Below the pieces are notes generated by a model that did no database searches, had not been told where the DNA came from, and was given only the letters and a program-made list of their open reading frames with translations. Source: an uncultured Planctomycetota bacterium (GTDB lineage Bacteria; Planctomycetota; PLA2; JAEUHO01). From it: 64,000 nt of DNA. The DNA lies in the NCBI GenBank assembly GCA_963772585.1, contig CAVYXV010000013.1, forward strand, positions 62,555-126,554, in the 5' to 3' direction. Numbering within the stretch: the first letter of the stretch is position 1; every line of letters starts with the position of its first letter. The translations under genes and the position numbers were made by a program. This document shows, piece by piece, positions 43,773-64,000 of the stretch.

Positions 43773-44046
43773 GAGACACCTCCAAGCCGAGGCTCGAAGA
43801 CGCGGTCGGCCCGATCGGGGGGAAACGGCCGGATCCGCCGGGGCGCGGGCGAGAGCCCTCCCTCCTCCGCGTACCCGACCGCGCGCCACCGGCCCCATCG
43901 GCAGGCACACAGGCCCCTGAGCACCGCGAGGAGCGTCACCGGCCACGCGAGGCGGCCGCGGTCGCCTCGCGTCCGGATGTCGTCGAGGTGAGCCCCCGCG
44001 TAGGATGCGCGCCTCTCGCCGACGACGGACACGGCGGAAAGGACCC

Positions 44047-47000
44047 ATGGACGAATCCGCGATCGGATGGGTGGACGCCTTGCTCGCCCTGGACGAGGAA
44101 CGGCTCCTGCGGATCGGCGTCCGCCACGCGGCGAAGTTGGGACGGCTCCGGGACAAGCTCGCGCTGGTGGGCGGGCACGCCCCCTCCCCGAGGGCTCCGG
44201 GGGAACGCTACGGGGACGCCCACAAGATCGCCCAGGGTTCCATGGGCGCCGTGTTCCGGGTGCGCGACCGCATCCTCGACCGCGATGTCGTCCTGAAGGT
44301 CCTCTCCCCGGACCCTTCGGGCGAGGAGGGCTGCGCCTCGCCGGACGAGATCCGCCCCCCGTCGGCGACCGAGGCAGGGGGCGTCGACTACGAGAGCTAC
44401 CGGGCGCGTTTCGTCGAGGAGGCGAGGATCGCCGCCGACCTCGAACACCCGGGCGTGGTTCCGGTGTACGACCTCGGCGAGACGCCCGCGGGCGTGCCGT
44501 ATCAGGTGCTCCGGATGATCCGCACCGAGCGGACCCTGGCGGGCCTCCTCGCCGACGCCGGCCGGAGCCACTGGCGCGAACGACGTCGGCTCCTGGACCC
44601 CTTCCTGGATGCCTGCGACACGATCGCCTACGCCCACGCCAACGAGGTGATGCACCGCGACCTGAAGCCGGACAACATCATGGTCGGGGAGTTCGGCCAG
44701 GTGTTCGTCGTGGACTGGGGCCTGGCCCGGCGGCTCGGCGCACCCTCCGACGCGGCGCGGACCCCCGAAGACATCCGCGATCGACCCTCGCCGCGAACGC
44801 CGCTCACCGGCATCGCCGGAACCCCCGGCTACATCGCACCGGAGGTCCTGCTCCAGCGCACGCGCTATCCCGACCCGCGGCAGGACGTCTACGCGCTGGG
44901 CGTCATCCTCTACGAGATCCTGGCGGGCCGATCGCTGCATCCGCGGGTCGGCCTCCAGGAGTACCTCGAATGGATGAAGGCGGGAGGGGAACCGTCCTTC
45001 GAAGACGTGCCGTGGGAACCGCCGCCGGCGCTGGTCGCGTGCTGCCGCGACGCCCTGGATCCCGATCCCGAGCGGCGACTGGCCTCGGTCAAGGAACTCA
45101 TCCGACGCATCCGACTCTGGCGGGAAGAGGAGATCCTCGAGAAGCTCGCCTTGCGGGTGGAGGCGGATTTCCAGGCGGCGGCCGAGGCGCCCGAGGCGCA
45201 GCGTCTCGCGATCGCGGACCGCGCCGGCGCCAACCTCGAGCGCTTGCGGCGGCAGGGAGGCGCCGCTTCGACCGTGGATCGCCTCCAGCGAGATCTGGAC
45301 GAGCTCCGGGCCCGGATCCATGACGAGGCGATCCGCTTGCAGCGCCGCCGGCTCCTCCGCACGGCGGGACTCCTCGGCCTCTTGGTCTTCGCCGTCGCCG
45401 GCGTCCTGGTGTCCCTCTCCTTGGAGGCACGCCGGAAGGAGGTGAGCGCGGCGTACGAGCGCGCGAGCGCCGCCGCCGAGAACGCCCGCCGAGCCCAGGA
45501 GCGGACCCAATCCGCTCTGGGTCTGGCTCTCCAGGCGCGGGAGGCGGCCGAGACCGCGAAGAACCGCGCCGCCTCGTACGGCCTCGTGAGCGCATCCCGG
45601 GAGGTTCAGCTCGACGATCCGGCTCTCTCCTACGCGCTCGCGAACCGGGCCGCGTGTTGCGCGGGTCCGCCGCCCGAGCGGGCGGTGACCCGGCTCCACG
45701 AGGCGTTCGCGCACCTGACGGAGATCCGCAGGATCGACGCCTCGCCGACGGCGGTGACCGCCGCGGACTGGTCGCCCGACCACGACCTGCTCGTCACGGG
45801 CGACGCGGCGGGAACCCTCGCCGGCCGGTCTCTCGACGGCACGCTGACCTGGACCGCCGAAGCCCACACCGACGCCGTGACGACCTGCGTCCTCTCCCCG
45901 GACGGCAGCCGGATCCTGACGACATCGCGGGACGGCTCGGCGCGGCTTTGGAAGGCCGACGGGACGCCGGTCGCGACGCTCGAGGGCCATGAGGGTCCCG
46001 TGCTCGCGGGCGCCTTCTCGCCCTCCGGCCGCCAGGTGGCCACGGCCGGAGCGGACGGAGACGTCCGCATCTGGAACGCGGACGGTACCTCGGCCGGGGT
46101 GCTCGGCGGGCCAGACCACGGTCACCAGGGCGAGGTCGGCCAACTCCTCTGGCTCCCCAACGGCAAGGGAATCGTGACGGGATCGCGGGACGGCACCGCC
46201 CGGTTGTGGCGGGAGGACGGGAAGCAGTGGATGGTGCTGAACGGCCACGTCGGGGGCGTCACGAGCCTGGCCACCGACGCGGAGGGGCGCTTCCTCCTGA
46301 CCGGATCCATGGATGGCGCCGTCCGGCTCTGGGACATGAAAGGCGTACGGCTCCAGGAGCTGCGCGCCGGCGAAGATGCCTTCCCGGTGCTTTGCGTGGC
46401 GGTCTCGCCGTCGGGCGATCTCCTCGTCGCCGGCCGCGAGGACGGCTCCGTCGCGATGTGGTCGGAGAAGGGCGAGCTGCAGGCATCCATGCAGGTCCAC
46501 GAGGGCCCCGTACGGCACATCGCCTTCGCGCGGGCCGGGCTCCGCGTCCTCACCGGCTCCGACGATCGGACGATCTGCGCCTGGGATCGCACGGGACGGC
46601 TCGTCGCCTCCCACCACGGCCACCACGGGGGAATCACGAAACTGCTGGTCGCTCCCGGACGGGGTGGATTCGCGTCGGCCTCCGAGGACGGGACGGTCCG
46701 CTTCTGGGCCTGGTACGGGCACGAGGTCTTCACCCGATCCGAGCCGGGCGATCCGCTGACGGGGGTCGTGCCCGGGCCCGACGACGGGAGTTTCGTGACC
46801 TGGAGCGACGGCGTCGTCCGGGCATGGCGTCCCGGCGCGACGACACCGCTACCGGTGGCCCGTCTCCCGGAGGGCTGTCGCCGCTGGGCCGCCGTCGCAG
46901 GGGCCCAAGGGCCGTTCGCCGCCCTCTGCGCGGAAGGCGCACTCGTCGTCGACGCGTCGGGCGGACGAACGGAGATCCCCCTCCCCGAAGGAGAGGCGCC

Positions 47001-47679
47001 GTCCCATACCGCGTTCCTGCCCGACGGACGCGGGCTCCTCCTGGCCTGGCCTTCCGGGCGCGTCCTCGTCCGTCCGGACGCCGGCCCGGAACGCGTACTC
47101 TCGACCGAGACCGGCGTTGCCGTGGTGGCGGTCAGCGTTTCCCCCGACGGCGCGCTCGCGGCGTACGGAAACGCCGAGGGACTCGTCCGCGTCCAGGACC
47201 TCGAAGACGGCCGCGAGGTGTGGTCCCGTCGCATCGGCGAGGCCGTGAACGACGTGGTCCTTTCGCCGGACGGCCGACGACTCGCCATCGCCGCGGCGGC
47301 GGCCCCGGTGCGCGTCTACTCCCTGGACGACGACCGGCGCTGGCCGTACGCCGACGACCTCCAGGACGCCACGGCCGTGCGGTGGGACCATGGCGGGGCG
47401 TCGCTCCTGATCGGCACCCCGGATGGAACGATGCACCGTCGGAACGAAGCAGGGGACGACCTCGCGATCTACCGGGCACCCGACGGCCCCCTCCAGGCGG
47501 TCGCCGCTTCCGCCGACGGGCGACTCGTCGCGACGCTCTCCCGGACCGGGGTCTTCCGCGTGTGGCACGCCACGGCGGAGAGCCTCCTCCAGGAGGCGCG
47601 GGCGCGCCCCCCGCGCGCACTGACCCCTGCGGAGCGTGCACGCTATCAGGACGTGCTGCCCCCGCGCGGCGGCGGGTAG
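44047..47679 (+). CDS. Ser/Thr protein kinase - transmembrane segment - WD40 beta-propeller protein
   Basis: AAAGGA RBS. Kinase motifs (VFRVRDR..DRDVVLKV, HRDLKPDNIM, DWGLAR, GTPGYIAPE). TM helix (LLGLLVFAVAGVLVSL). More than seven WD40-like repeats (SRDGSARLW, GADGDVRIW, SRDGTARLW, SMDGAVRLW...). Confidence 0.85.
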   Translation: MDESAIGWVDALLALDEERLLRIGVRHAAKLGRLRDKLALVGGHAPSPRAPGERYGDAHKIAQGSMGAVFRVRDRILDRDVVLKVLSPDPSGEEGCASPDEIRPPSATEAGGVDYESYRARFVEEARIAADLEHPGVVPVYDLGETPAGVPYQVLRMIRTERTLAGLLADAGRSHWRERRRLLDPFLDACDTIAYAHANEVMHRDLKPDNIMVGEFGQVFVVDWGLARRLGAPSDAARTPEDIRDRPSPRTPLTGIAGTPGYIAPEVLLQRTRYPDPRQDVYALGVILYEILAGRSLHPRVGLQEYLEWMKAGGEPSFEDVPWEPPPALVACCRDALDPDPERRLASVKELIRRIRLWREEEILEKLALRVEADFQAAAEAPEAQRLAIADRAGANLERLRRQGGAASTVDRLQRDLDELRARIHDEAIRLQRRRLLRTAGLLGLLVFAVAGVLVSLSLEARRKEVSAAYERASAAAENARRAQERTQSALGLALQAREAAETAKNRAASYGLVSASREVQLDDPALSYALANRAACCAGPPPERAVTRLHEAFAHLTEIRRIDASPTAVTAADWSPDHDLLVTGDAAGTLAGRSLDGTLTWTAEAHTDAVTTCVLSPDGSRILTTSRDGSARLWKADGTPVATLEGHEGPVLAGAFSPSGRQVATAGADGDVRIWNADGTSAGVLGGPDHGHQGEVGQLLWLPNGKGIVTGSRDGTARLWREDGKQWMVLNGHVGGVTSLATDAEGRFLLTGSMDGAVRLWDMKGVRLQELRAGEDAFPVLCVAVSPSGDLLVAGREDGSVAMWSEKGELQASMQVHEGPVRHIAFARAGLRVLTGSDDRTICAWDRTGRLVASHHGHHGGITKLLVAPGRGGFASASEDGTVRFWAWYGHEVFTRSEPGDPLTGVVPGPDDGSFVTWSDGVVRAWRPGATTPLPVARLPEGCRRWAAVAGAQGPFAALCAEGALVVDASGGRTEIPLPEGEAPSHTAFLPDGRGLLLAWPSGRVLVRPDAGPERVLSTETGVAVVAVSVSPDGALAAYGNAEGLVRVQDLEDGREVWSRRIGEAVNDVVLSPDGRRLAIAAAAAPVRVYSLDDDRRWPYADDLQDATAVRWDHGGASLLIGTPDGTMHRRNEAGDDLAIYRAPDGPLQAVAASADGRLVATLSRTGVFRVWHATAESLLQEARARPPRALTPAERARYQDVLPPRGGG

Positions 47680-47716
47680 CGTGGGATCGAACACCTTGAC
47701 GAATCCGGGAGAGGCC

Positions 47717-48655
47717 GTGCCGCCGAGCGATAGCCCCCACGAGACGTGCCTGGTCGAGCGCGGCCACGACCACACCTTCGGTCAGCAGCACCGCAAGACC
47801 GGTGAGAGCCGGACCAGGATCGTGATCGTCCTCACCGCGCTCATGATGGTCGCGGAGATCCTCGCGGGCCTGGCCTTCGGATCGATGGCCCTTCTGGCCG
47901 ACGGCCTCCACATGGCCTCGCACGCGGTGGCTCTCGCCATCACGGCCGTGGCGTACTACTACGCGAGACGCCACGCGACCGACGAGCGGTTCTCGTTCGG
48001 GACCGGAAAGGTGAATGCGCTCGGCGGCTACACCGGCGCCGTCCTGCTCGGGATCTTCGCCGCCTTCATGGCCGTCGAGAGCTTCCGCCGCTTCTTTCAA
48101 CCGGTGACCATCCAGTTCGACCAGGCCATCCTCGTCGCGACGATCGGACTCGTCGTGAACGCGGTGAGCGCGTGGGTCCTGGGGAGCGGTCACCACGAGC
48201 ACGACGAGCACGGCCATCACCACCACGACCACAACCTGCGCTCCGCCTACCTCCACGTGCTGGCCGACGCCCTGACCTCGCTCGCCGCCATCGTCGCGCT
48301 CCTCGCCGGCAAGTACTTCCAGCTCGGCTGGATGGATCCCGCAATGGGGGTCTTGGGCGGCGCGCTCGTCGCCCGATGGTCGGTGGGCCTGCTGCGCCAG
48401 AGCGGGCGCGTCCTCCTCGACCGCCAAGCGCCGGAGGACGTCCGCCGCGAGGTCGGCCGGGCCGTGGAGGAAGGGAGCACCGACCGCGTGAGCGATCTCC
48501 ACGTCTGGTCCATCGGGCCGGGGATCTGGGCGGCGGAGATCGTGGTGCTGGCCGAGGAACCGCGGCCGCCCGAGCACTACAAGGAGCGCCTGCCCCGGGG
48601 TCTGGGCCTCGTACACGTGACCGTCGAGGTCCTTCCCTGCGTCCACGGGGGGTAG
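47717..48655 (+). CDS. cation diffusion facilitator (CDF) family metal efflux transporter (CzcD/ZitB-like)
   Basis: GTG with GGGAGAGG upstream. TM core with HxxxD metal-site motifs (HMASHAVAL, HVLADALTS). His-rich loop (HHEHDEHGHHHHDH). C-terminal cytoplasmic domain. Confidence 0.8.
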   Translation: MPPSDSPHETCLVERGHDHTFGQQHRKTGESRTRIVIVLTALMMVAEILAGLAFGSMALLADGLHMASHAVALAITAVAYYYARRHATDERFSFGTGKVNALGGYTGAVLLGIFAAFMAVESFRRFFQPVTIQFDQAILVATIGLVVNAVSAWVLGSGHHEHDEHGHHHHDHNLRSAYLHVLADALTSLAAIVALLAGKYFQLGWMDPAMGVLGGALVARWSVGLLRQSGRVLLDRQAPEDVRREVGRAVEEGSTDRVSDLHVWSIGPGIWAAEIVVLAEEPRPPEHYKERLPRGLGLVHVTVEVLPCVHGG

Positions 48656-51605: not shown

Positions 51606-51980
51606 GAGGGCGGAGGGGGGCCCCGGCGCCCTTGCATGCTGGACTCTCCGCTCCAACAACGCCCACTCCCGCTTCTCCCAGACTACCGGCCGGGCTCTCG
51701 AGGCATCGCGTTCGGGCTTCCGCCGTCGCGGCGGGCGATGCCCCTTCCTCGCCGCGTGCGCGTACCGCCGCCGCCCGCCGCCACCGACCCGCACCCCGAC
51801 ACGACTGATGATGAGAGTCGCTCTCGACGAGTTCCGTGACGTTCATCCGCTCGGTGGCGCGAACCCGCATTGCGCCCGTGCCGTGGTCCACGAGACTCTA
51901 GCGATCCGAACGATTGGTCTTGCCCATCGGTCCCGGAAGGGGTGAAACGGCATCGCCGACCGTCGCCGAGGGAGGACGTC

Positions 51981-52871
51981 ATGCGGATCCCGGGTCTGAT
52001 CGTGTTGGGCGCGCTCGTGCTCGGCGTGGGTGCTTGCGGCACAGGCGCGGGTTCCACGACACCGGGCACCCCCCTCGTGACGGTGCAGGGCGTCGTGATG
52101 GCGACGGACGGCTCCACCGCGTCGGTCGACGGCATCGACGTCGCCTGCCCCGAGGCAGGCGTACAGGTCACGACCGACGCGGAGGGACGATTCCAGTTCC
52201 AGGTTCCGATGGACCAGACGTTCCACATGGGCTTCGCGGACCCGACGTGGCCCGTGACCGGCCAACACCGCGGCGTCGATCAAGAGCCCTCCGATCCGAC
52301 GGCGGACCCCACGGAGGTCGATGGCTCCATCGTCACGTGCCGCCCCGAACAGCCTCTCCCCTGGTGCGACGTCGAGGTCTACCTCGAGGAGGGTGAGGTC
52401 GCCGAGTGCGACGTGCACTGGTACGGCGCCGACGGCGACAGCCACGACGGCGAAGACGTCCTCGAGTGCATGGGGCCCTGGCACGACTCGGGTGTCCTCG
52501 CCGAGGTCGAAACCACGCTCGAAGGTGCCTGCATGACCGTCGAGTGCGAGGTCGAGGGACTGCCCGCGGACACCTCTTACCAGATCGTGATGATGGACGC
52601 CGACGGAAACGTCCGGCCCCTGGCCATGCTCGACGTGGACGATGGGGGCACGGGTCACATGGAGTGGTCGTGGTGCGATGGCGACGACCTCCCCTTCGAC
52701 GCCATGATACCGGCCGACTGCCTCGGGTACGGGATGGCGATCCTCGACGCCCAGGGCGAGATGGTCTTCCAGGGCCACCTTCCGCAGGGCGAGATGTACG
52801 CCGGCCATCACCACGGCGGCGGGATGGGTGGTATGGGCGGCATGGGCGGCATGGGACCGTACGCCCGCTAG
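51981..52871 (+). CDS. lipoprotein with a carboxypeptidase-regulatory-like domain, an acidic Cys-containing middle, and a C-terminal HHHGGGMGGMGGMGGMG tail
   Basis: GGGAGGA RBS. Lipobox GVGACG. VQGVVMATDG...VTTDAEGRFQFQVP resembles CarbopepD_reg. The Met/Gly/His-rich C-terminus is typical of Cu(I)/Ag(I)-binding periplasmic proteins. Confidence 0.6.
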   Translation: MRIPGLIVLGALVLGVGACGTGAGSTTPGTPLVTVQGVVMATDGSTASVDGIDVACPEAGVQVTTDAEGRFQFQVPMDQTFHMGFADPTWPVTGQHRGVDQEPSDPTADPTEVDGSIVTCRPEQPLPWCDVEVYLEEGEVAECDVHWYGADGDSHDGEDVLECMGPWHDSGVLAEVETTLEGACMTVECEVEGLPADTSYQIVMMDADGNVRPLAMLDVDDGGTGHMEWSWCDGDDLPFDAMIPADCLGYGMAILDAQGEMVFQGHLPQGEMYAGHHHGGGMGGMGGMGGMGPYAR

Positions 52872-53095: not shown

Positions 53096-54133
53096 ATGCG
53101 CTCCGCCCGGCTCCTGCTCTGCTCGGTCCTTCTCGGGCTCGCCGCCTGCGGTCTCGGCGACGGCCGGCCCGAGAGCATCCAGGGGCCCTGGTGGCTGACC
53201 CGCTACGTGGACGGCGTCGCCCAGGATCCGATCCACCTGACCGTCGCCCAGAGCGGCTCGGACATCCAGGTGCGCTTCAGCTGCGACGACACCAGTCCGG
53301 TCGGCATCGGCAGCTACCTGGACGGCACCTTCGGCGTCCTGTTCGACTTCGGGGGCGGCGACACGGCCCACCTGCAGGGGCTCCGGATCGCGACCGGCAT
53401 CGTGGGCACGTTCAACGCCGGCCCCGAGTCGGGTACGTTTCTCATGGTGCCGGCACCGTCGTACCTCGATTGCTCCATGGCGTGCGCCCCCGTCGCACCT
53501 CTGAGGTTCGTGGACACGTCCTTCACCGAGTTGGACAAGATCGAGCGCATCTCCCTCTTCCGCTCCTCCGCGGGTCACTCGTACGTCGATGGCTGCGAGA
53601 CGTGCCGCAGCATGAAGCACTACTTCGCCCCCTACGCCGCCTGGCGGATGAACGACGCCGTGGAGGTCTACGCGCCGGTGAACGGCACGATCGTCTCCAT
53701 CCAGGACGAGGGCCACGGCGCCAGCGTCGGAGACACCAACAAGCAGGTCCGCATCCGCTCGAGCGCCCACCCCGACTACACCTTCGTGCTCTTCCACGTG
53801 GACCTCACGGCCCCCGTCGTGACACCCGGGTCCCTCGTGACCGCGGGCCAGGTGCTCGGGCACGCGAGACTGGAGTACCCCGACATCCCGGAGGTCGCGG
53901 ACAACTTCGACATCGGCGTGCGGGTCCACACGGCGTTCGGCGAGCGCTTCGTCTCGTGGTTCGACGTCCTGACCGACGCGGCGTTCGCCGCCTATGTCGC
54001 CCGGGGGGCTTCGGCGCGCTCGGACTTCGTGATCTCCGAGGCCGCACGGGACGCGGATCCGCTGACCTGCGACGGCGAGGCGTTCACCTCCACGGGCACC
54101 CTCAACGCCTGGGTGATGCTCGATCCTCCGTAA
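53096..54133 (+). CDS. lipoprotein with a degenerate M23/LytM-like peptidase domain
   Basis: Lipobox LLGLAACG. GHSYVDG (HxxxD), APVNGTIVS, and FHVDL...GSLVTAGQVLGHA resemble M23 motifs. Confidence 0.55.
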   Translation: MRSARLLLCSVLLGLAACGLGDGRPESIQGPWWLTRYVDGVAQDPIHLTVAQSGSDIQVRFSCDDTSPVGIGSYLDGTFGVLFDFGGGDTAHLQGLRIATGIVGTFNAGPESGTFLMVPAPSYLDCSMACAPVAPLRFVDTSFTELDKIERISLFRSSAGHSYVDGCETCRSMKHYFAPYAAWRMNDAVEVYAPVNGTIVSIQDEGHGASVGDTNKQVRIRSSAHPDYTFVLFHVDLTAPVVTPGSLVTAGQVLGHARLEYPDIPEVADNFDIGVRVHTAFGERFVSWFDVLTDAAFAAYVARGASARSDFVISEAARDADPLTCDGEAFTSTGTLNAWVMLDPP

Positions 54134-54257: not shown

Positions 54258-54737
54258 ATGTCGCATCCCGCCGGGAAGGCCCTGCTGATGGCGGCCACGG
54301 TCCTTGCGCTCGTGGTGGCCCCCGCTGTTCCGGCGCAGTGCCTTTGCGGAGAGAGCCACGGCCGCGCAGGCTCGCAGCACGTCGCGTCCCTGCCCTCCTG
54401 CTGCGCCGACGAGCACGAGTCCTCCTGCGGCGCAGCGGGCACCGAGGACGCATGCGGCCACGGATGTACGGGTGCGCAGCCCGAAGGCGGCCCCTGTCGC
54501 CGGCCCGACTGCCCCTGCCGCCACCGCCCCCCGCTCGTCAGCTCGCTCACGGGCACCCTCGGCGCGTCGATGCTCTCCCTCGGCACGACCCCCACGACCT
54601 TCCTCGCGCCCTGGGCGTCGTGGGGTCGGCCGGGCGTCCCGATTCCGGCATCGGCGGCTGTTCGCCAGGGGGCGTTTCCCGTCGAACGACCACCTGGTTC
54701 GCTCGGCCGCCTCGCCACCCAGGTCCTCCTGATCTAG
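54258..54737 (+). CDS. small secreted Cys/His-rich hypothetical protein
   Basis: Hydrophobic N-terminus, 13 Cys in ~60 aa (CLCGESHG...CCADEHESSCG...CGHGCTG...CRRPDCPC). Weak RBS. Positioned at the head of the metal-efflux cluster. Confidence 0.35.
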   Translation: MSHPAGKALLMAATVLALVVAPAVPAQCLCGESHGRAGSQHVASLPSCCADEHESSCGAAGTEDACGHGCTGAQPEGGPCRRPDCPCRHRPPLVSSLTGTLGASMLSLGTTPTTFLAPWASWGRPGVPIPASAAVRQGAFPVERPPGSLGRLATQVLLI

Positions 54738-54972
54738 CCGCTCCCCTACCCGGTTGAACGGCGGCGCGCCTCCTACGCGAAGGGCGACCGCCTTTTCGAA
54801 GCACGGCGCGGAGGCGCGGGGCGCGCCCCCACCACGACCGACGTGCTTCTCTTGCCCGGCCCGCACGGCGATTCGCCGCGGAGTTTCGATCGAACGTCGA
54901 AACGAGTAGGGTCGAACCGGAACCCGGAGTCGGTTGCGCCCAGGACCCGTCGTCCTGGACGGGAGGTACGAC

Positions 54973-56470
54973 ATGCACACCAGGAGGAACCCTCCGGCCG
55001 CCGTGGTGGCGTGCACCCTGTTGCTCGCACTCGCGTCGTGCCGGACGTCCAGGGGGACCCTTGCCTCCCCCGGGGAGCGCGTGTCCACCACCTCGGAGGT
55101 GGCCACCGGCGCGCACGGTGGGCGTGAGGTCGCGGCGACCCACCCGCCGGGAACGCCCCCGGTCGCAGAGCCGGCGACGCCGGCCGCTCCGACGCGACCG
55201 GGCCCCGCCGGACACCGGACGGTCTCGACCCCGCTGCTCTCCATCCTGTCCATGACCTTCACGCGAAATCCGGACATCCGGCGGGCTCGCGCCCAGTGGC
55301 GGGCGGCGATCGAGAAGATCCCGCAGGCGAAGGCGCTCCCCGATCCCTCGTTCCAGGTCCTCCACTGGGTGGAGAGCGTGGAGACGCGGGTCGGCCCGCA
55401 GGAACAGGCCTTCACGCTCACACAGAAGATCCCGTGGCCCGCGAAGCTCGCGAACGCGGGTCGCGTGGCGGAGGCGGGTGCACGCATCGCCGCATTGCGG
55501 TACTCGGCGGTTGTCCGCGACGCGCTCGCGGCGGCGAAGGCGTCCTACTACGAGTATTCCTATCTCGTCCGGGCGCGCGAACTCGTCAGGCAGAACCAGG
55601 AGATCGCCGCCCGCCTCGCCGGTCTCGGCGCGGAGATGATGGCCGAGGACAGGGCCCTCCTGATCGACGTCCTCAAGGCCCAGTCGCAACTCGCGCAGCT
55701 CCAGTACGACCTGATCACCCTCGAGGAACTGATCGCGGCCGAGCGAACCCGGCTGAACGGTTTGATGAACCGCCAACCCGACGAGCCGATTCCGGAGCCG
55801 CCCGAACCACTCTTCCCTCGTCTCGTGATTTCCGTCGACAGGCTCTTCCAGCTCGCGATGTCGAATCGGGAGGAGATCCGCATCGCGGATCGGACCATCC
55901 AGCAGGCGTGCGCCCGCCTCGCCCTGGCGCACAGCCAGGCCCGCCCCGACTTCACGCTCGGTGGAACCTGGATCCGCGTGGGGGAGAACAGCGCCGCCGC
56001 CGCGCCTCCCCCCCGACAGCGGCAAGGACGCGTGGGGCGTCGTGCTGGGCGTCAGTATTCCGCTCTGGGCGAACAAGAACGCCGCGGTGATCCGCCAGGC
56101 GGACGCGGAGCGCGACGCCGCGGTCGCCGGACGGGCGTCGGTTGTCGTCGAGACGAAGACGATGATCCAGGACGCCTACACGAAGCTCTCCAACGCCGAG
56201 CGACTCGTACTCCTGTACCGCGACAGTCTCGTCCCCCAAGCGGAACAGGTGATGCTGTCCACGGAGGAACTGGCCCGAGAAGACCGTATGCGCCTCGGGG
56301 ACTACCTCGAGGCCCAGACGGTCTGGCTCAACTTCACCCTCGCCAAGGAGCGCGCCCTCGCGGACTACCAGCAGGCGATCGCTCGGCTGGAGCGCCTGAC
56401 CGGTGCCAACCTCGCCCCTTCCCCCCCGCAGCCGCCCATGGCGGCCCCCACCGAAGAGGAGTCGCGATGA
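54973..56470 (+). CDS. TolC/CusC-family outer-membrane efflux lipoprotein (copy 1), interrupted by a +1 frameshift at a C7 tract (56008-56014)
   Basis: GGGAGG RBS. Lipobox LLALASC. The N-terminal half is in frame 1 up to ...ENSAAAAPP. The C-terminal half (ORF 55961..56470, DSGKDAWGVVLGVSIPLW...) is in frame 2. Removing one C restores a contiguous OMP. Confidence 0.7.
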
Positions 56471-58013
56471 ACAGGGAACGCGGTAGAGGCGAGGGTCGAG
56501 CGTTCCCGCTACTCCTCCCGCTCCTCCTGTTCGCGGGCGCCTGCAGCGCCAGCCCGCTGCGCGGGGACTACGCGGGAGGCGGCGAGACCCCCTTTGCCCG
56601 ACGGGCCATCGCGGGAGAGTCGGCGATCCCCATCGCTGCCCATCCCGAACCCGTCCGCGCCGGCGAGGACCAGGTGATCGAGAAGGTGCGGAACCAACTG
56701 GATGCCCTGGCCCGGACCTTCCGCGAGCGAGCGAAGCGAGGTCCCTCGGATCCGAAACGCCTCGGCTTCGACGTCGAGCGGGACGTGAGCAACGAACGGC
56801 TCCAGCAGGACCTGACGCTGGCGGTCGTGCTCGGAGCGGCCTTCGAGATGAGCCCGGCCATCCAATCCGCGCGGGACGCCTTCCGCGCCACCGTGGAGCA
56901 GTTCAGTCAGGTGGCCTTCCTCGACACGATCCTGCGGCAGTACGTGTCCTTCACGAAGGACCTGAACCTCCGGGTGGGCAAGCCGCGGCAGAAGGAGACG
57001 GTCGAATCGCTGTTCCCGTTCCCGGGCACGCTCGCGCTGAAGAGTCGCATCGTGGAGGAAGAGGCGAAGGCCGCGGAGGAGCACCTCCAGGCGACCGTCC
57101 GCCGGACGCTCGTATCTGCGGGGAAGACCTACTACGACTACGGGTACGCCCAGGAAGCCATCGGGATCGTCGAGGAGAACATCCAGGTTCTTCGCGGCAT
57201 GGTCGAGATCGCGGAGTCCCGGTACGGCGTCGGCGAGACCAAGCAGGGCGTCGTCCTCAAGACCCATACGGAGATCGCCACGCTCGAGGAGAAGCTGGTC
57301 ACGCTGAAGCAGGAGGTGCAGACCGCGAGGGCGCGGCTGGCCTCCGTTCTCGGCCTGCCGCCCGACTTCCCTCTGGGCCCCGCCCAGGTACCGGAACCCA
57401 GCGCGCCGCCGTCGGCCGTCGAACCGCTCTACGACCTGGCCCGTCGCTCCCGACAGGAGATCCTGGCCCTCGACGCGAAGATCGCTCGAACCGAGGCGCT
57501 CATCGAACTCTCGGAGACCCAGACGTACCCGGATCTCTCGCTGGGCTACAGCCGTTTCGAGGAGGGGACGGGCACGCGCGTCGGGGGCGCTCGGATGACG
57601 GAGCCGTTCGCCGAGAAGCCGACCCAGATGCCGAAGCCGTGGTTCGGTCAGAGCGCGTCCTTCATCGAGGAGATGAAGGGCCGCTTGCGGGCCATGCAGG
57701 CATCCCGCGCCGATCTCGTCGCGACGGTCGCGTACCAGGTCAAAGACGCGTGGTTCAAGTGGGACGCGGCCTGGCGTCAGACCGCCCTCTACCACTCGAC
57801 ACTCCTTCCCTCCGCGGAGCAGACGTACGAAGTGCTCCAGTCCGGTTGGCAAGAGGGTGTCGTGGACTTCCTCGACGCGCTCGACGCTCAGCGCGTCTGG
57901 TTGAAGGTCCGTCTCCAGGAGAAGGCCGTCATCCGCGACACGCTCGCCGGAAGATTGGCCCTGCTCGACGCGCTGGGGACCGGCCTCCCCCCGAGACCCC
58001 GAACTCACACTGA
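56467..58013 (+). CDS. TolC/CusC-family outer-membrane efflux lipoprotein (copy 2); the stop is reached only after a frameshift at a C6 tract (57987-57992)
   Basis: ATGA overlap with the copy-1 stop. Lipobox LLFAGACS. TolC-like repeats. The reading frame has no stop for 2.7 kb, while the -1 frame gives ...LPPETPNSH* ending at 58013, matching the ORF 57639..58013 tail. Confidence 0.7.
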
Positions 58014-58024
58014 AGACCAAAGCC

Positions 58025-60691
58025 ATGAAGACTTCGAACAACCTCTCCGTGATCCTGGCGATCGGCGCCGCCCTCGTCGGCCTCGGCGCCGGATACCTCC
58101 TGTTCCACCGGGGCCAGAATGGTGCGACGACGCCGACGGGGCAGTCGGCGACCGCGGAAGGTCCCACGACGCTCTACACGTGCGGCATGCACCCGGAGGT
58201 GATCCAGGACCACCCCGGAACATGCCCGCAGTGCGGCATGACGCTGACGCCTCTCCAGACGGACGAGGCGGAAGAGGGCAATGGCGGAGGGAAGGACCGC
58301 AAGGTCCTCTACTGGGTCGCGCCCATGGACCCTTCCTACATCAAGGACAAGCCCGGGAAGTCTCCGATGGGCATGGACCTCGTGCCCGTCTACGAGGACG
58401 AGGTGAAGGGCGGCCCCACGGTCAAGATCGATCCGACCACGCAACAGAACATGGGGATCCGAACCGCTCCCGTCGAGAAGGGCCCCCTCGTTCACCAGGT
58501 TCGGGCCGTGGGGAACGTCGGGTACGACGAGACCAAGATCGGCATCGTCTCGCTGAAGGTCGGCGGATACATCGACGAGCTGTTCGTGAGCGAGACCGGC
58601 GTCGCGGTGAAGAAGGGCCAGCCCCTCTTCTCCATGTACGCGCCGGAGGTGGTCCAGGCCCAGGAAGAGTACTTGCTGGCGAAGCGGAGCCTCGAGAAGA
58701 GCGACGCGGTGGACCCCAAGCACTGGCGCAATCTGCTCGCCGCTTCGCGCCTCAAGCTGCTCCGATGGGACATCTCCGAGGACCAGATCCACGAGCTCGA
58801 GAAGCGAGGCAGGCCCGAGAAGAACGTCGTCTGGAGGAGCCGCTTCGATGGCATCGTCCTCCACAAGAACGCCGTCGAGGGCGCGTACTTCAAGCCGGGA
58901 GATCCTCTCTACAAGATCGCCGGCCTCGACACGATCTGGGTGGAAGTCTCGATCTACGAGTACGAATTCCCGTGGATCAAGACCGGACAGCCCGCTCGGA
59001 TGGAGCTCCCCTACTACCCGGGGGAAGTCTTCCAGGGCGTCGTGGACTTCATCTATCCCTACCTCGACCCCCGCACACGCGACCTGAAGGTGCGACTCGT
59101 GTTCGACAACCCGGGACGCGAACTGCTCCCCGACATGTACGTCACGGTGATCATCGATTCGAAGCTCGCCGACGAGGCCATCCTCGTGCCGGGCGAAGCC
59201 GTTCTCGACACCGGTACGCGACAGGTCGCATTCGTCGCCCGCGGGAAGGGGCACTTCGAGCCGCGCAACATCACGGTCGGCGTGGAGGGCGAAGGCGGCC
59301 GGCGCGAGGTGGTGATGGGGCTCGTTCCCGGCGAGTACGTCGTCACGTCCGGCCAGTTCCTTCTCGACTCCGAGTCGAAGATCAAGGAGGCGATCCAGAA
59401 GATGCTGGAGAGCCGAAAGCAAGGCGGGAACGCCGGCGAGTCCGAAGCGCGGGGCGCTCCTTCCGGGTCGCTGGCGGCCCTGCCGAAAAAGGACCGGTCG
59501 GCGTTCAAGGCCCCTCCGGGACTGGTCCCGGTCGTGGGCGACGTCTGCCCGGTGATGGGCGGGGAGCCCCAACCCGACGTCTTCGTCGACTACAAGGGCT
59601 ACCGCGTCTTCTTCTGCTGCACCGGGTGCCCCCCCCGCTTCCTCGCCGAACCCGAGAAGTACATGCAGAAGCTCCGCCGCATGGGCGCCGTCCCCTCCAC
59701 GGAACCCGAGAGCGGGACTGCCCCACCCGACGCGCGGTTCTCCGCGCCGGAGGGCCTGATCCCCGTCGTGCCGAAGGCGTGCCCCGTCATGGGCGGCGAA
59801 CCCCAACCCGACGTCTACGTGGACTACAAGGGCTATCGCATCTTCTTCTGCTGCGCCGGCTGCCCCGAAGAGTTCGAGAAGGACCCCGAGACCTACATGA
59901 AGAAGCTCCGCGAGGAGGGCGCGATTCCCGCGGAAACCCCGACCGCCGCACCGGCACCGGCACCGGCGCCGGCACCGGACGACCGTTTCAAGGCACCCGA
60001 GGGCCTCGTCCCGGTCGTGCCCAAGGCGTGCCCCGTCATGGGCGGCGAACCCCAACCCGACGTCTACGTGGACTACGAGGGCTATCGCATCTTCCTCTGC
60101 TGCGCCGGCTGCCCCGAAGAGTTCGAGAAGGACCCCGAGACCTACATGAAGAAGCTCCGCGAGGAGGGCGCGATTCCCGCGGAAACCCCGACCGCCGCAC
60201 CGGCACCGGCACCGGCGCCGGCACCGGACGACCGTTTCAAGGCACCCGAGGGCCTCGTCCCGGTCGTGCCCAAGGCGTGCCCCGTCATGGGCGGCGAACC
60301 CCAACCCGACGTCTACGTGGACTACGAGGGCTATCGCATCTTCCTCTGTTGCGCCGGCTGCCCCGAAGAGTTCGAGAAGGACCCCGAGACCTACATGAAG
60401 AAGCTCCGCGAGGAGGGCGCGATTCCCGCGGAAACCCCGACCGCCGCACCGGCACCGGCACCGGCGCCGGCACCGGACGACCGTTTCAAGGCACCCGAGG
60501 GCCTCATCCCGGTCGTGCCCAAGGCGTGCCCCGTCATGGGCGGCGAACCCCAACCCGACGTCTACGTGGACTACAAGGGCTATCGCTTCTTCTTCTGCTG
60601 CCAGGGCTGCCCCGAGAAGTTCCTGGCCGACCCAGGCCGCTACATCGAGGAGCTCCGCGCCCAGGGCATCCACATCGGCATCCATGACTGA
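58025..60691 (+). CDS. RND efflux periplasmic adaptor (CusB-like) with an N-terminal CxxC metal-binding domain and five C-terminal YHS/TRASH domains
   Basis: N-terminal TM. TCGMHPEV...CPQCGM heavy-metal-binding domain. Membrane-fusion-protein core (barrel-sandwich/beta-barrel motifs). Then 5 x [CPVMGGEPQPDV(Y/F)VDYKGYR(I/V)FFCC(A/T/Q)GCP] separated by AP-rich linkers. Confidence 0.85.
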   Translation: MKTSNNLSVILAIGAALVGLGAGYLLFHRGQNGATTPTGQSATAEGPTTLYTCGMHPEVIQDHPGTCPQCGMTLTPLQTDEAEEGNGGGKDRKVLYWVAPMDPSYIKDKPGKSPMGMDLVPVYEDEVKGGPTVKIDPTTQQNMGIRTAPVEKGPLVHQVRAVGNVGYDETKIGIVSLKVGGYIDELFVSETGVAVKKGQPLFSMYAPEVVQAQEEYLLAKRSLEKSDAVDPKHWRNLLAASRLKLLRWDISEDQIHELEKRGRPEKNVVWRSRFDGIVLHKNAVEGAYFKPGDPLYKIAGLDTIWVEVSIYEYEFPWIKTGQPARMELPYYPGEVFQGVVDFIYPYLDPRTRDLKVRLVFDNPGRELLPDMYVTVIIDSKLADEAILVPGEAVLDTGTRQVAFVARGKGHFEPRNITVGVEGEGGRREVVMGLVPGEYVVTSGQFLLDSESKIKEAIQKMLESRKQGGNAGESEARGAPSGSLAALPKKDRSAFKAPPGLVPVVGDVCPVMGGEPQPDVFVDYKGYRVFFCCTGCPPRFLAEPEKYMQKLRRMGAVPSTEPESGTAPPDARFSAPEGLIPVVPKACPVMGGEPQPDVYVDYKGYRIFFCCAGCPEEFEKDPETYMKKLREEGAIPAETPTAAPAPAPAPAPDDRFKAPEGLVPVVPKACPVMGGEPQPDVYVDYEGYRIFLCCAGCPEEFEKDPETYMKKLREEGAIPAETPTAAPAPAPAPAPDDRFKAPEGLVPVVPKACPVMGGEPQPDVYVDYEGYRIFLCCAGCPEEFEKDPETYMKKLREEGAIPAETPTAAPAPAPAPAPDDRFKAPEGLIPVVPKACPVMGGEPQPDVYVDYKGYRFFFCCQGCPEKFLADPGRYIEELRAQGIHIGIHD
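59730..60480. repeat. 249-bp near-perfect tandem repeat x3 inside the adaptor gene (YHS domains 2-4)
   Basis: Identical 62-aa wrong-frame ORFs at 59787, 60036 and 60285 (period 249). The encoded 83-aa units differ only at K/E and F/L positions. Confidence 0.9.
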
Positions 60692-60763: not shown

Positions 60764-63700
60764 ATGATCGGCCGCCTGATCGCCTTCTGCATCCGCAACA
60801 AGTTCCTGGTCCTCCTCCTCGCGTTCCTCCTCTTCGCCGCGGGCATCTACTCGATCCAGGCCATCAAGCTGGACGCGATCCCCGACCTCTCCGACGTACA
60901 GGTCATTATCTATACGGACTATCCCGGACAGGCTCCCCAGGTCGTGGAGGACCAGGTCACCTATCCACTGACCACGGCGATGCTCGCCGTTCCGTACGCG
61001 AAGGTCGTCCGCGGTTACTCCTTCTTCGGTCTCTCCTTCGTCTACATCATCTTCGAGGACGGGACCGACCTGTACTGGGCCCGTTCCCGCGTCCTCGAGT
61101 ACCTGAACTTCGCCCGGGGGCGGCTGCCCCAGGGCGTGACCCCCAGCCTCGGGCCGGACGCCACCGGCGTCGGGTGGGTGTACGAGTACAGCCTCGTCAA
61201 CGGCTACTACTGCCCGGATCACCCGCAGGGGATCTGGCGGGACGACTCGCAGGATCGGTGGTACGCCGCGCCGGAAGACGCGCCCGAGCGGCGCCGTGGC
61301 TACCTCCGGAGGGTGCGCGTCTTCGACACCCCGGGGACCTGCCCCCTCGACGGGACCACGAAGCTCGCCCTGGCGGAGTTCGATCTCTCCGAACTCCGAA
61401 GCCTCCAGGACTGGTACCTGCGCTACGAGTTGACCGCGGTACCCGGCGTCTCGGAGGTTGCCTCCATCGGTGGATTCGTCCGGCAGTACCAGGTGGTCGT
61501 CGATCCCGACAAGCTCCTGGCGCACGGGATTCCCCTGCCGAGGGTGAAACAGGCCATCCAGACGATCCAACAACGACGTCGGGGGCCGCCTGCTGGAGCA
61601 ATCCGAGACCGAGTACATGGTGCGGGGGCGCGGCTACCTGGGCGAATTGTCCGACGCGCAGAGGCAGGAAGCGCTCGCGCAGGGAATCCCGCTCTCCCGC
61701 GTCCGCCAGGAACGCGTCGTCGCCGACCTGAAGCAGATCCCCCTTGGCGCGACCTCCAGCGGCACGCCCATCTTGCTCGGCGACGTCGCCACGGTGCAGG
61801 TGGGCCCCGAACTCCGCCGCGGGCTGGCCGAGCGGAACGGGAAGGGGGAAGTCGCGGGCGGCATCGTCGTGATGCGTTCCGGAGAGAACGCCCTCGAGGT
61901 CATACAGAGGACGAAGACGAAGATCCGCGAGCTCGAGAACGGGCTGCCTGCGGGCGTCGCTGTCCGCACCGAGTACGACCGCTCGGATCTCATCGAGCGA
62001 GCCGTGGACACGCTCAAGGAGAAACTCCTCGAGGAGATGCTCGTCGTCGCCCTCGTTTGCGTGATCTTCCTCCTCCACGTACGGAGCGCCTTCGTAGCCG
62101 TCTTCGTGCTTCCCATGGGCGTTTTGATCTCCATCATCGTGATGCACATTCTCGGCATCAATGCCAACATCATGAGCCTGGGCGGCATCGCGATCGCCAT
62201 CGGCGTGATGGTCGACTCCTCGATCATCATGGTGGAAAACGCCCACAACCACTACGAGCGAGAGAGCGGAACACGCAGCCACGAGGAGGTGATCACGGCG
62301 GCGGCGACGGAGGTCGGCCCGAGCCTGTTCTTCTCGCTGCTCGTCATCACCGTCAGCTTCTTCCCGGTCTTCGTGCTCGGCGAGCAGTCGGGCCGGATGT
62401 TCAAGCCGCTGGCGTACACCAAGACCTTCGCGATGGGCGCGGCGGCTCTCCTCGCCGTCACCGTCATCCCGGTGTTGATGGTGTTCTTCGTGCGGCGCCG
62501 CGCCCTCCCGGAGTCTCTCACCCGAGCCCGCGTCCTCCGCTGGATCGCGACGATCGCGGGCGTGCCCCTGATCCTTCTCACCGCCTGGGCGCTCTTCCTC
62601 CCCAAGGACCTCACGTCCCGAACCACGATCTGGCTCCAGGACCACTGGGTGCTCGTGGGCCTCGGATGGACCGTCTTCGCCCTCGTCCTCTTCCTGCCGC
62701 AGCGGATCCTTCCGGAGGAGAAGAACCCGATCTCCAGGGTCCTGATCCGTCTCTACGAGCTCCCCTTCTGGATCGCCATGAAGGGGAAATGGCTCACACT
62801 CGTCGTGGCGGTCGCCTTCGTGGCCAGCATGGTCTACCCGTTCTCGCGGCTCGGGAGCGAGTTCATGCCGCCGCTCAACGAAGGCGATCTCCTCTACATG
62901 CCCACGACGGACCCCGGAATCAGCATCACCAAGGCGAGGCAACTTCTCCAGCAGACGGACAAGCTCATCGCGAGCTTCCCCGAGGTGGCGAACGTCTTCG
63001 GGAAGATCGGACGCGCGGAGACCGCAACGGATCCAGCGCCCCTCTCGATGATCGAGACGACCATCACCCTGGAGCAAGACAAGTCCAAGTGGCGGAAGCG
63101 AAAAGTCCCCGGCTTGTTCGGCCGAGGGGAAGTCGAGCGACCCATCACCATCAAGGAACTCACCTACGGCTGGCACGATCCCGACGGCACGCACCACGAC
63201 GGCCTGAACGACGTCGTCCGCTTCCCCGGCCTCACCAACGCGTGGACGATGCCGATCAAGACGCGCATCGACATGCTCTCCACGGGCATCAAGACGCCGG
63301 TGGGCATCAAGATCATGGGAGAGAACCTGGAGACGCTCGCCTCCCTGGCCCAGCGGATCGCGAGCGAGGTGCGGACGATCCCCGGGACCGTCTCTGCCTA
63401 CCCCGAGAAGACCGTTGGCGGCAACTACGTCGACTTCGACATCGACCGGGAGGCCGCGGCGCGCTACGGGCTCACCGTGGGCGACGTCGAAGACGTGATC
63501 ATGTCGGCCCTGGGAGGCATGAACATCACCACGACGGTAGAGGGGCTAGAGCGCTATCCGGTGAACCTCCGCTACATGCGCGAGCTCCGGGACTCGCTTC
63601 CGGCCCTGAGACGCACGCTCGTGCCCACCCCCGGGGGTGCGCAGGTCCCCCTGACCCAGGTCGCGGACATCCGCATCCACCGCGGCCCTCCCGGCATCAA

Positions 63701-64000
63701 GAGCGAGAACGCGCGGAAGACGGCGTGGATCTACGTGGATCTGTCCACGTCCGACATCGGCGGGTGGGTGGACCAGGCCAAGGGCGTGGTCGCCGACCAC
63801 GTGGACATGCCCGCCGGCTACACCCTCCAATGGTCCGGGCAGTACGAGTACATGCAGGCCGCCTCGAAGCGCCTCCGGCTCGTGATCCCGTTCACCCTCC
63901 TCCTCATCATCATCCTGCTCTACACCTCCACACGCAGTTGGTTCCGGACGGCTGTCGTGCTGCTGGCGGTTCCCTTCAGCCTCGTGGGCGCCATGTGGTT
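60764..64000 (+). CDS. CusA/CzcA-family heavy-metal efflux RND transporter (3' end runs off the window), with a 1-nt frameshift near 61565
   Basis: [23 protein letters not shown]...[32 protein letters not shown] is canonical. After ...RVKQAIQT the frame slips (cag acg a tcc aac aac gac gtc ggg ggc = SNNDVGG). RND motifs continue to the window end. Confidence 0.8.

Follow-up and report, generated by a model that had tools for sequence, protein, structure and literature searches.

The stretch of DNA analysed here (the window; 64,000 nucleotides (nt), positions 62,555 to 126,554 of contig CAVYXV010000013.1 in GenBank assembly GCA_963772585.1) comes from an uncultured Planctomycetota bacterium and has a GC content of ~70%. 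Towards its end, four consecutive genes on the forward strand encode two outer membrane factors (OMFs), a CusB-type periplasmic adaptor and a CusA-type pump of the resistance-nodulation-division (RND) family, in the order OMF-OMF-adaptor-CusA. The adaptor is predicted to belong to a Cu(I)/Ag(I) efflux pump of the CusCBA type. It ends in a tail of five YHS domains, the middle of which is encoded by an array of near-identical 249-nt tandem units. The positions of all features are collected in Table 1.

The CusCBA-type identity is suggested by Pfam, NCBIfam, Protein Data Bank (PDB) and fold matches, by the methionines of adaptor and pump, by the two OMF genes and by synteny with a related locus. 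The Pfam family HlyD_D23 (CusB/HlyD barrel-sandwich) matches amino acids (aa) 155-373 of the adaptor at 1e-73, E. coli CusB in the PDB matches aa 89-461 at 1e-53 (phmmer), and the generic RND adaptor model TIGR01730 (RND_mfp) is passed with 127.5 against a cutoff of 94.9. The core of an AlphaFold2 model superposes on CusB of the CusBA complex (3ne5_C) with a TM of 0.75 (Foldseek). Aligned to E. coli CusB (3h94_A), the N-terminal metal site reads APM / SP-MGMD against DPM / SPFMDMD, and all three methionines, which we take to be the ligands numbered M49, M64 and M66 in E. coli, are kept. The adjacent CusA homolog keeps its methionine triad as well (LLYMP, PLSMIE, RIDMLS). These observations bear out the original prediction, made from the DNA sequence before this analysis, that the gene encodes a CusB-like adaptor. 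The score with the NCBIfam CusB subfamily model (NF007303) is 206.7 bits and does not reach the cutoff of 390; by sequence, the protein is distantly CusB-like rather than a CusB of the enterobacterial type. The GC content at third codon positions (GC3) of the open reading frame (ORF) is 0.88, which favours the forward strand over an antisense ORF. The closest relative, a 659-aa protein with 70% identity (P0002), is a syntenic ortholog from a Planctomycetota metagenome-assembled genome (MAG) of the Microflora Danica Nanopore long-read set (PMC12313526). At its locus (L001) the gene order is again OMF-OMF-adaptor-CusA, and the genes after cusA encode a P-type ATPase that has both YHS and HMBD domains, a YHS protein of 254 aa and a cation diffusion facilitator (CDF) transporter.

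The N-terminal part of the adaptor holds a metal-binding domain, as had been predicted, but of another pattern than the proposed CxxC...CxxC. Both the profile match (HMBD, PF19335) and the cysteine and histidine spacing (C-x2-H...C-x2-C) place an HMBD module at aa 51-76, and its C53, C67 and C70 are near-invariant in the homolog alignment (A1). A second match to the same model, at aa 94-123, corresponds to the CusB Met site.

The Pfam YHS model (PF04945) matches five stretches of the C-terminal tail, with 91.6 bits for the protein as a whole where the cutoff is 30.3, so the predicted five YHS/TRASH domains were all recovered by profile search. Their CPVMGG...CCxGC motifs start at aa 508, 586, 669, 752 and 835. 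Each unit has the form C-x22-C-C-x2-C, in agreement with the TRASH signature C-x(19-22)-C-x3-C, and none of the 27 adaptor-borne units aligned departs from C5, C28, C29 and C32 (alignment numbering). The longer motif first proposed, CPVMGG...FFCCxGCP, describes the five units except that units 3 and 4 have FLCC in place of FFCC. In the AlphaFold2 model of the adaptor (40 homologs; mean predicted local distance difference test (pLDDT) 84), the five units have pLDDT >90 and the linkers at aa 470-487, 560-567, 638-650, 721-732 and 803-816 have pLDDT <50. As modelled, the tail is a set of YHS beads on a predicted disordered string, in line with the flexible linkers originally expected. These had been described as (AP)n throughout, which holds after units 2-4 only; the linker after unit 1 is of other sequence. 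An AlphaFold2 model of a single unit, built from a 5-sequence alignment, had a pLDDT of 58 and was excluded from the fold search.

Within the tail, Tandem Repeats Finder reports a period of 249 nt over 59750-60622 (3.5 copies, 97% matches, score 1634, far above chance). Comparing the sequence with itself at a lag of 249 nt delimits a near-identical zone of 3.2 units, each of 83 codons, with four mismatches (at 59828, 59846, 60100 and 60257). The 249-nt units that start at 59973 and 60222, belonging to domains 3 and 4, are the same but for a single synonymous C/T change. The repeat register runs from mid-domain to mid-domain, and the near-identical zone accordingly takes in most of unit 2, units 3 and 4 in full, and unit 5 up to its middle. 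The predicted near-identical 249-nt units and their very recent amplification both find support in these figures.

Comparison with relatives that have one or two YHS units shows how the tail was assembled. Unit 1 shares 87% identity with the unit that comes first (A) in two-unit relatives (P0002). Unit 5 is 70-74% identical to the last units (B) of P0002 and of another Planctomycetota MAG protein (P0003), and is also the ortholog of the single unit in other relatives. Units 2-4 are B-like in their N-terminal half (84%) and A-like in their C-terminal half (59% vs 45%), and this chimera pattern is what one expects if the stretch from the A C-half through the linker to the B N-half was duplicated in tandem. 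Sites within the repeat form a mosaic. At offsets 0-49, units 3, 4 and 5 agree and unit 2 differs; from offset 131 onward, units 2, 3 and 4 agree and unit 5 differs. At three first codon positions (I/V, K/E, F/L) units 2 and 5 share one state and units 3 and 4 the other; a further, synonymous change is seen in unit 4 alone. These per-site patterns show that duplication took place two or more times, with point substitutions in the interval. The tail grew within the gene and in frame, by tandem duplication: starting from an ancestral tail of two units (A, B), a chimera of the B N-half and the A C-half arose first, and its 249-nt register was then amplified, very recently, to three copies. Independent near-identical YHS duplications occur in the CusB of Anaerohalosphaera lusitana (P0274, on a 4.25-Mb contig) and in one further protein (P0141).

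Table 1. Features of the adaptor gene, its operon and the upstream region, in window coordinates.
Feature	Position	Strand	Remarks
CusB-type periplasmic adaptor gene	58025..60691	+	888 aa, ATG start, uninterrupted reading frame
Membrane-anchor helix, aa 5-28	58037..58108	+	Helix in AlphaFold2 model; hydrophobic sequence
HMBD module 1, aa 51-76	58175..58252	+	Pfam PF19335, 1.4e-11; C53, H56, C67, C70
CusB N-terminal metal site, aa 94-123	58304..58393	+	YWVAPMDP...SPMGMDLVPVY; also HMBD-model match, 1.8e-9
Adaptor core, aa 132-468	58418..59428	+	Membrane-proximal, beta-barrel, lipoyl and hairpin domains
YHS unit 1, aa 500-553	59522..59683	+	Pfam 29.8 bits
YHS unit 2, aa 578-631	59756..59917	+	Pfam 30.8 bits; chimeric, B N-half/A C-half type
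YHS unit 3, aa 661-714	60005..60166	+	Pfam 23.6 bits scanned alone; pLDDT >90
YHS unit 4, aa 744-797	60254..60415	+	23.6 bits; protein identical to unit 3
YHS unit 5, aa 827-880	60503..60664	+	Pfam 37.7 bits
Near-identical tandem zone	59774..60574	+	801 nt, 3.2 units of 249 nt, lag-249 self-comparison
GCACCG x5 hexanucleotide repeat	59948..59978; identical copies 60197-60227, 60446-60476	+	(AP)n-linker coding; Tandem Repeats Finder
OMF gene 1 (TolC/CusC-like)	55057..56419	+	Pfam OEP; frame broken in C7 run ~56008-56014
OMF gene 2	56467..58013	+	Pfam OEP 6e-30; 64% identity to L001 OEP2 ortholog
CusA-type RND pump gene	60764..64000, cut by window end	+	E. coli CusA 5e-202
Ser/Thr kinase gene	44005..47676	+	WD40 repeats, 1224 aa
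CDF-family cation efflux gene	47636..48652	+	
Predicted lipoprotein gene 1	51870..52868	+	333 aa; no Pfam match
Predicted lipoprotein gene 2	53096..54130	+	345 aa; LAAC lipobox signal peptide; no Pfam family
ORF upstream of OMF gene 1	54258..54737	+	159 aa, GC3 0.84
Conserved 30-nt stretch	54724..54753		87% conserved vs L001 6812-6841

How far can the count of five units be trusted? The operon contains three frame disruptions in 9 kb, at ~56008 (C7 run), ~57982 (C6 run) and ~61562 (not a homopolymer). In OMF gene 1, tblastn with the L001 ortholog gives frame 1 (55057-56010) and then frame 2 (55862-56419). The 3' end of OMF gene 2 has no in-frame stop, and a 1-nt fix in the C6 run (~57982-57987) leads to a TGA at 58011-58013. 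In cusA, the tblastn match moves from frame 2 to frame 3 at 61560-61564, where there is one base more than in the ortholog. Since the reading frames stay open and conserved past each disruption, the sequence makes long-read consensus errors more likely than pseudogenes, and a long-read assembly would favour a repeat count that was directly observed. In a decaying operon, both OMF genes and cusA would be true frameshift pseudogenes and the repeat would have grown by neutral slippage or recombination without selection. Disruptions in three of the four operon genes, with that of cusA outside a homopolymer, are what such decay might leave. We nevertheless regard it as very improbable, given that the frames past each disruption retain 55-85% identity to the ortholog, that the adaptor reads through 888 codons without a break and has the GC3 noted above, that two of the disruptions lie in C6/C7 runs typical of long-read consensus error, and that every duplication is in frame.

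The same three disruptions, together with the dependence on one contig, make the exact copy number and the single-base statements (four mismatches, one synonymous difference) provisional. The true number of units might be lower (e.g., four) or higher, with units 3 and 4 made to look alike by mis-assembly or by consensus polishing across repeats. The protein clusters with no other sequence, one contig is its sole source and the searches brought up no second assembly; the frame disruptions reveal residual consensus errors, and the 249-nt units of domains 3 and 4 are one base apart. However, unit-specific substitutions separate at least four distinct units, even were the last duplication an assembly error, and the array keeps the reading frame. 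The contig is 292 kb long, and if the window is of long-read origin, as we infer and as is the case for the MAG of its closest relative, reads would span the 750-nt array. The A. lusitana genome, moreover, has equally clean YHS duplications. An artefactual count is thus improbable in our judgement, and the unit-specific site patterns indicate that a multi-YHS tail cannot be purely an artefact.

How unusual is such a tail? Of the 121 closest adaptor homologs, 47 end in tails of more than 150 aa that are rich in Cys, His and Met, and 15 have one or two C-terminal YHS units; all seven extended-tail homologs that were scanned contain 4-8 HMBD modules. Multi-module metal-binding tails are therefore normal in this adaptor clade, and the premise of the original prediction, that adaptors of this kind usually carry at most one extra metal-binding module, does not hold there. 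The seven scanned proteins (P0009, P0016, P0025, P0030, P0047, P0090 and P0107) come from Phycisphaerae, Verrucomicrobiota (Limisphaera) and other lineages, and their HMBD modules lie mostly in C-terminal tails of 200-540 aa. This multi-HMBD architecture is common, and our literature searches turned up no account of it.

A comparison of YHS copy number, as first suggested, set the window protein apart: the related YHS-bearing adaptors that surfaced have one or two units against its five. Homolog, representative-library, tail and GTDB searches surfaced no other adaptor with more than two. In the GTDB genome scan, from which the source genome of the window was absent, YHS tails were present at 2 of 80 related loci, with 1 and 2 units, and a scan of JGI metagenomes with the tail returned only distant YHS proteins (≤50% identity over short segments). 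A tail search of a 5.8-billion-protein set gave 41 matches from a candidate list that AP-rich words possibly crowded. An exhaustive representative search with one unit, in which clustering at 50% identity may hide adaptor tails, found YHS arrays of 3-9 copies in non-adaptor proteins only. A profile search with the adaptor-borne units returned almost exclusively ~90-aa single-domain proteins and missed the query itself, and is uninformative on copy number. Three non-adaptor proteins of the representative library (P0129, P0156 and P0176) have 4-5 YHS units alongside leucine-rich repeats and PSCyt1, a cytochrome c domain of planctomycetes. The five-YHS tail is an unusually expanded case of a feature that is already common in the adaptor family.

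The units belong to a YHS subtype, C-P-V-M...C-C-x-x-C. Among the YHS matches of the representative search, methionine occupies the usual position of the second knuckle cysteine in 220 motifs, and the CC pair is present in 337 of 363. The profile search with the adaptor-borne units revealed that this subtype also has an abundant standalone form, proteins of ~90 aa that carry a signal peptide or a lipobox. In Desulfoferrobacter suflitae such a gene (P0341; L095, 6001-6279) stands in the order OMF-YHS-adaptor-RND, where the E. coli cus operon carries cusF, with a Cu-type ATPase gene nearby. In a Planctomycetota MAG (P0419; L096, 4476-6303) a lipoprotein YHS gene lies between the genes for a 496-aa adaptor and an RND pump, and the C-terminus of its product (...EKYLEKLPQFSD) matches the fused units of A. 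lusitana CusB. These sequence similarities suggest a fusion/fission relationship between standalone and adaptor-fused YHS domains.

The window system shares an adaptor core, a three-Met site, a CusA-type pump with its Met triad and an OMF partner with E. coli CusCFBA (PDB 3ne5, 3h94). Unlike the window adaptor, E. coli CusB has neither the membrane-anchor-plus-HMBD module nor a C-terminal tail, and uses a separate CusF. The window gave no tblastn match to a single CusF query sequence, and the adaptor has no CusF-family Pfam match. HMBD-tailed adaptors of Planctomycetota, Verrucomicrobiota and relatives (P0009, P0030, P0047, P0090), known as database sequences only, fall in the same clade (45-55% identity) and likewise end in long tails of 4-8 small Cys-based modules. 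Their module is HMBD (PF19335) rather than YHS, and near-identical recent repeats are absent. P0002, P0003 and A. lusitana CusB have the same architecture and YHS subtype as the window adaptor, with one or two units in place of five, and the chimeric middle units are its own. The standalone YHS proteins of cus-like operons (P0341, P0419) share the subtype, the periplasmic setting and the adjacent adaptor and RND genes, but are separate single-domain proteins of ~90-100 aa with their own signal peptides. To our knowledge, the one studied case of a chaperone domain fused to an adaptor is SilB. In PMC4446572, which cites Bersch et al. 2011, Cupriavidus metallidurans SilB is described as having a C-terminal CusF-like metallochaperone domain. 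Both SilB and the window protein are adaptors of heavy metal efflux (HME) RND pumps with a C-terminally fused, chaperone-type metal-binding domain that also exists standalone. In SilB this is one OB-fold CusF domain of Met/Trp type, whereas the window adaptor has five Cys/Met treble-clef YHS domains of unrelated fold, and the resemblance is functional only.

Several other features of the locus were noted. At ~aa 140-200 of CusA (~61180-61360) there is a ~58-aa insertion, also found in the ortholog (1227 aa, compared to 1047 aa in E. coli), that contains YYCPDHP...PGTCPLDG, which resembles a degenerate HMBD; Pfam gives no match to it. Of two predicted lipoproteins, the first is encoded 2 kb before the start of the pump operon and has a C-terminus rich in His, Met and Gly (...AGHHHGGGMGGMGGMGGMGPYAR) that resembles a periplasmic soft-metal-binding tail, and the second is encoded between it and the operon. 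Directly upstream of the operon is a Cys/His-rich ORF with a signal-like N-terminus. It was dropped as a candidate chaperone, as it is not conserved at the ortholog locus and may not be a gene. Upstream of OMF gene 1, in intergenic DNA that is otherwise unalignable between the two sequences compared, a 30-nt stretch (TCCTCCTGATCTAGC.GC..CCCT.CCCGG) is conserved with L001, and may be a regulatory site. Further upstream are genes for a kinase and a CDF-family transporter (Table 1); YHS genes have a CDF gene as a neighbour in L001 and L089-L092 as well.

So, what might the tail do? We consider it reasonably probable that the gene encodes the adaptor of a predicted Cu(I)/Ag(I) CusCBA-type RND efflux pump and that, by analogy, its tail acts as a tethered periplasmic metal acceptor or buffer feeding the CusB Met site or the CusA cleft. 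The YHS units would serve as tethered acceptors, donors or buffers, catching soft metal ions near the inner membrane, and the captured metal would pass to the Met site of the adaptor or the Met cleft of the pump. Should there be six adaptors per pump, as in E. coli, the tails would offer ~30 YHS sites per pump, and additional copies would widen the capture radius and increase local buffering capacity. The tethered chaperone or buffer role is suggested by the export of the same subtype and its encoding inside cus-like operons. Fusion of a chaperone domain to an adaptor has its precedent in SilB. Metal binding by the units would follow from their ligand set and from the YHS domain of a mycobacterial cyclase, which is a copper-responsive module (PMC4626032).

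Several observations weigh against this tethered-acceptor role, in addition to the frame disruptions and the provisional copy number discussed above. The open-access literature yielded no paper that ties YHS to CusB. With regard to metal specificity, a standalone YHS gene in Desulfobaccales adjoins a CDF transporter and not a Cu pump. The main counter-argument is that a profile built from the units finds, as nearest solved relatives, phenol hydroxylase in its YHS region (2inp_A, E=0.002) and Ta0938 (E=0.03), both of which we take to hold structural zinc. The units could accordingly be structural zinc fingers, or sensor or interaction modules through which metal would control the assembly or activity of the pump, or which would fasten the adaptor to another envelope component. 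YHS/TRASH domains have been grouped with treble-clef zinc fingers (PMC4999995), and the sole biochemically studied YHS domain is a copper sensor that switches an enzyme (PMC4626032). Yet the change of the second knuckle cysteine to methionine, with an extra cysteine, is conserved in the subtype and suits soft-metal exchange; the module is also a free exported protein of cus-like operons; and a structural or sensory role offers no obvious rationale for five-fold multiplication on floppy linkers. We consider a structural or sensory role rather unlikely, and prefer that of a tethered metal acceptor or buffer.

A broader proposal, which we hold to be doubtful, is that CPVM...CCxxC YHS domains form an unrecognised class of periplasmic metallochaperones for HME-RND pumps, a CusF analogue that occurs free, as a lipoprotein or fused. 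The array would then be a rapidly evolving, recombination-prone cassette of 249-nt units and GCACCG linkers, with a strain-variable copy number that tunes metal capture and buffering.

For copper biology, the findings represent an incremental gain rather than a change of paradigm. A different fold appears to do a job analogous to that of the SilB domain, in up to five copies. Many phyla have no CusF, and the module found free in cus-like operons is a concrete, testable candidate to stand in for it there. The array itself provides a clean snapshot of how a metal-binding tail may be built, with unequal recombination in mid-domain giving rise to chimeric but intact domains.

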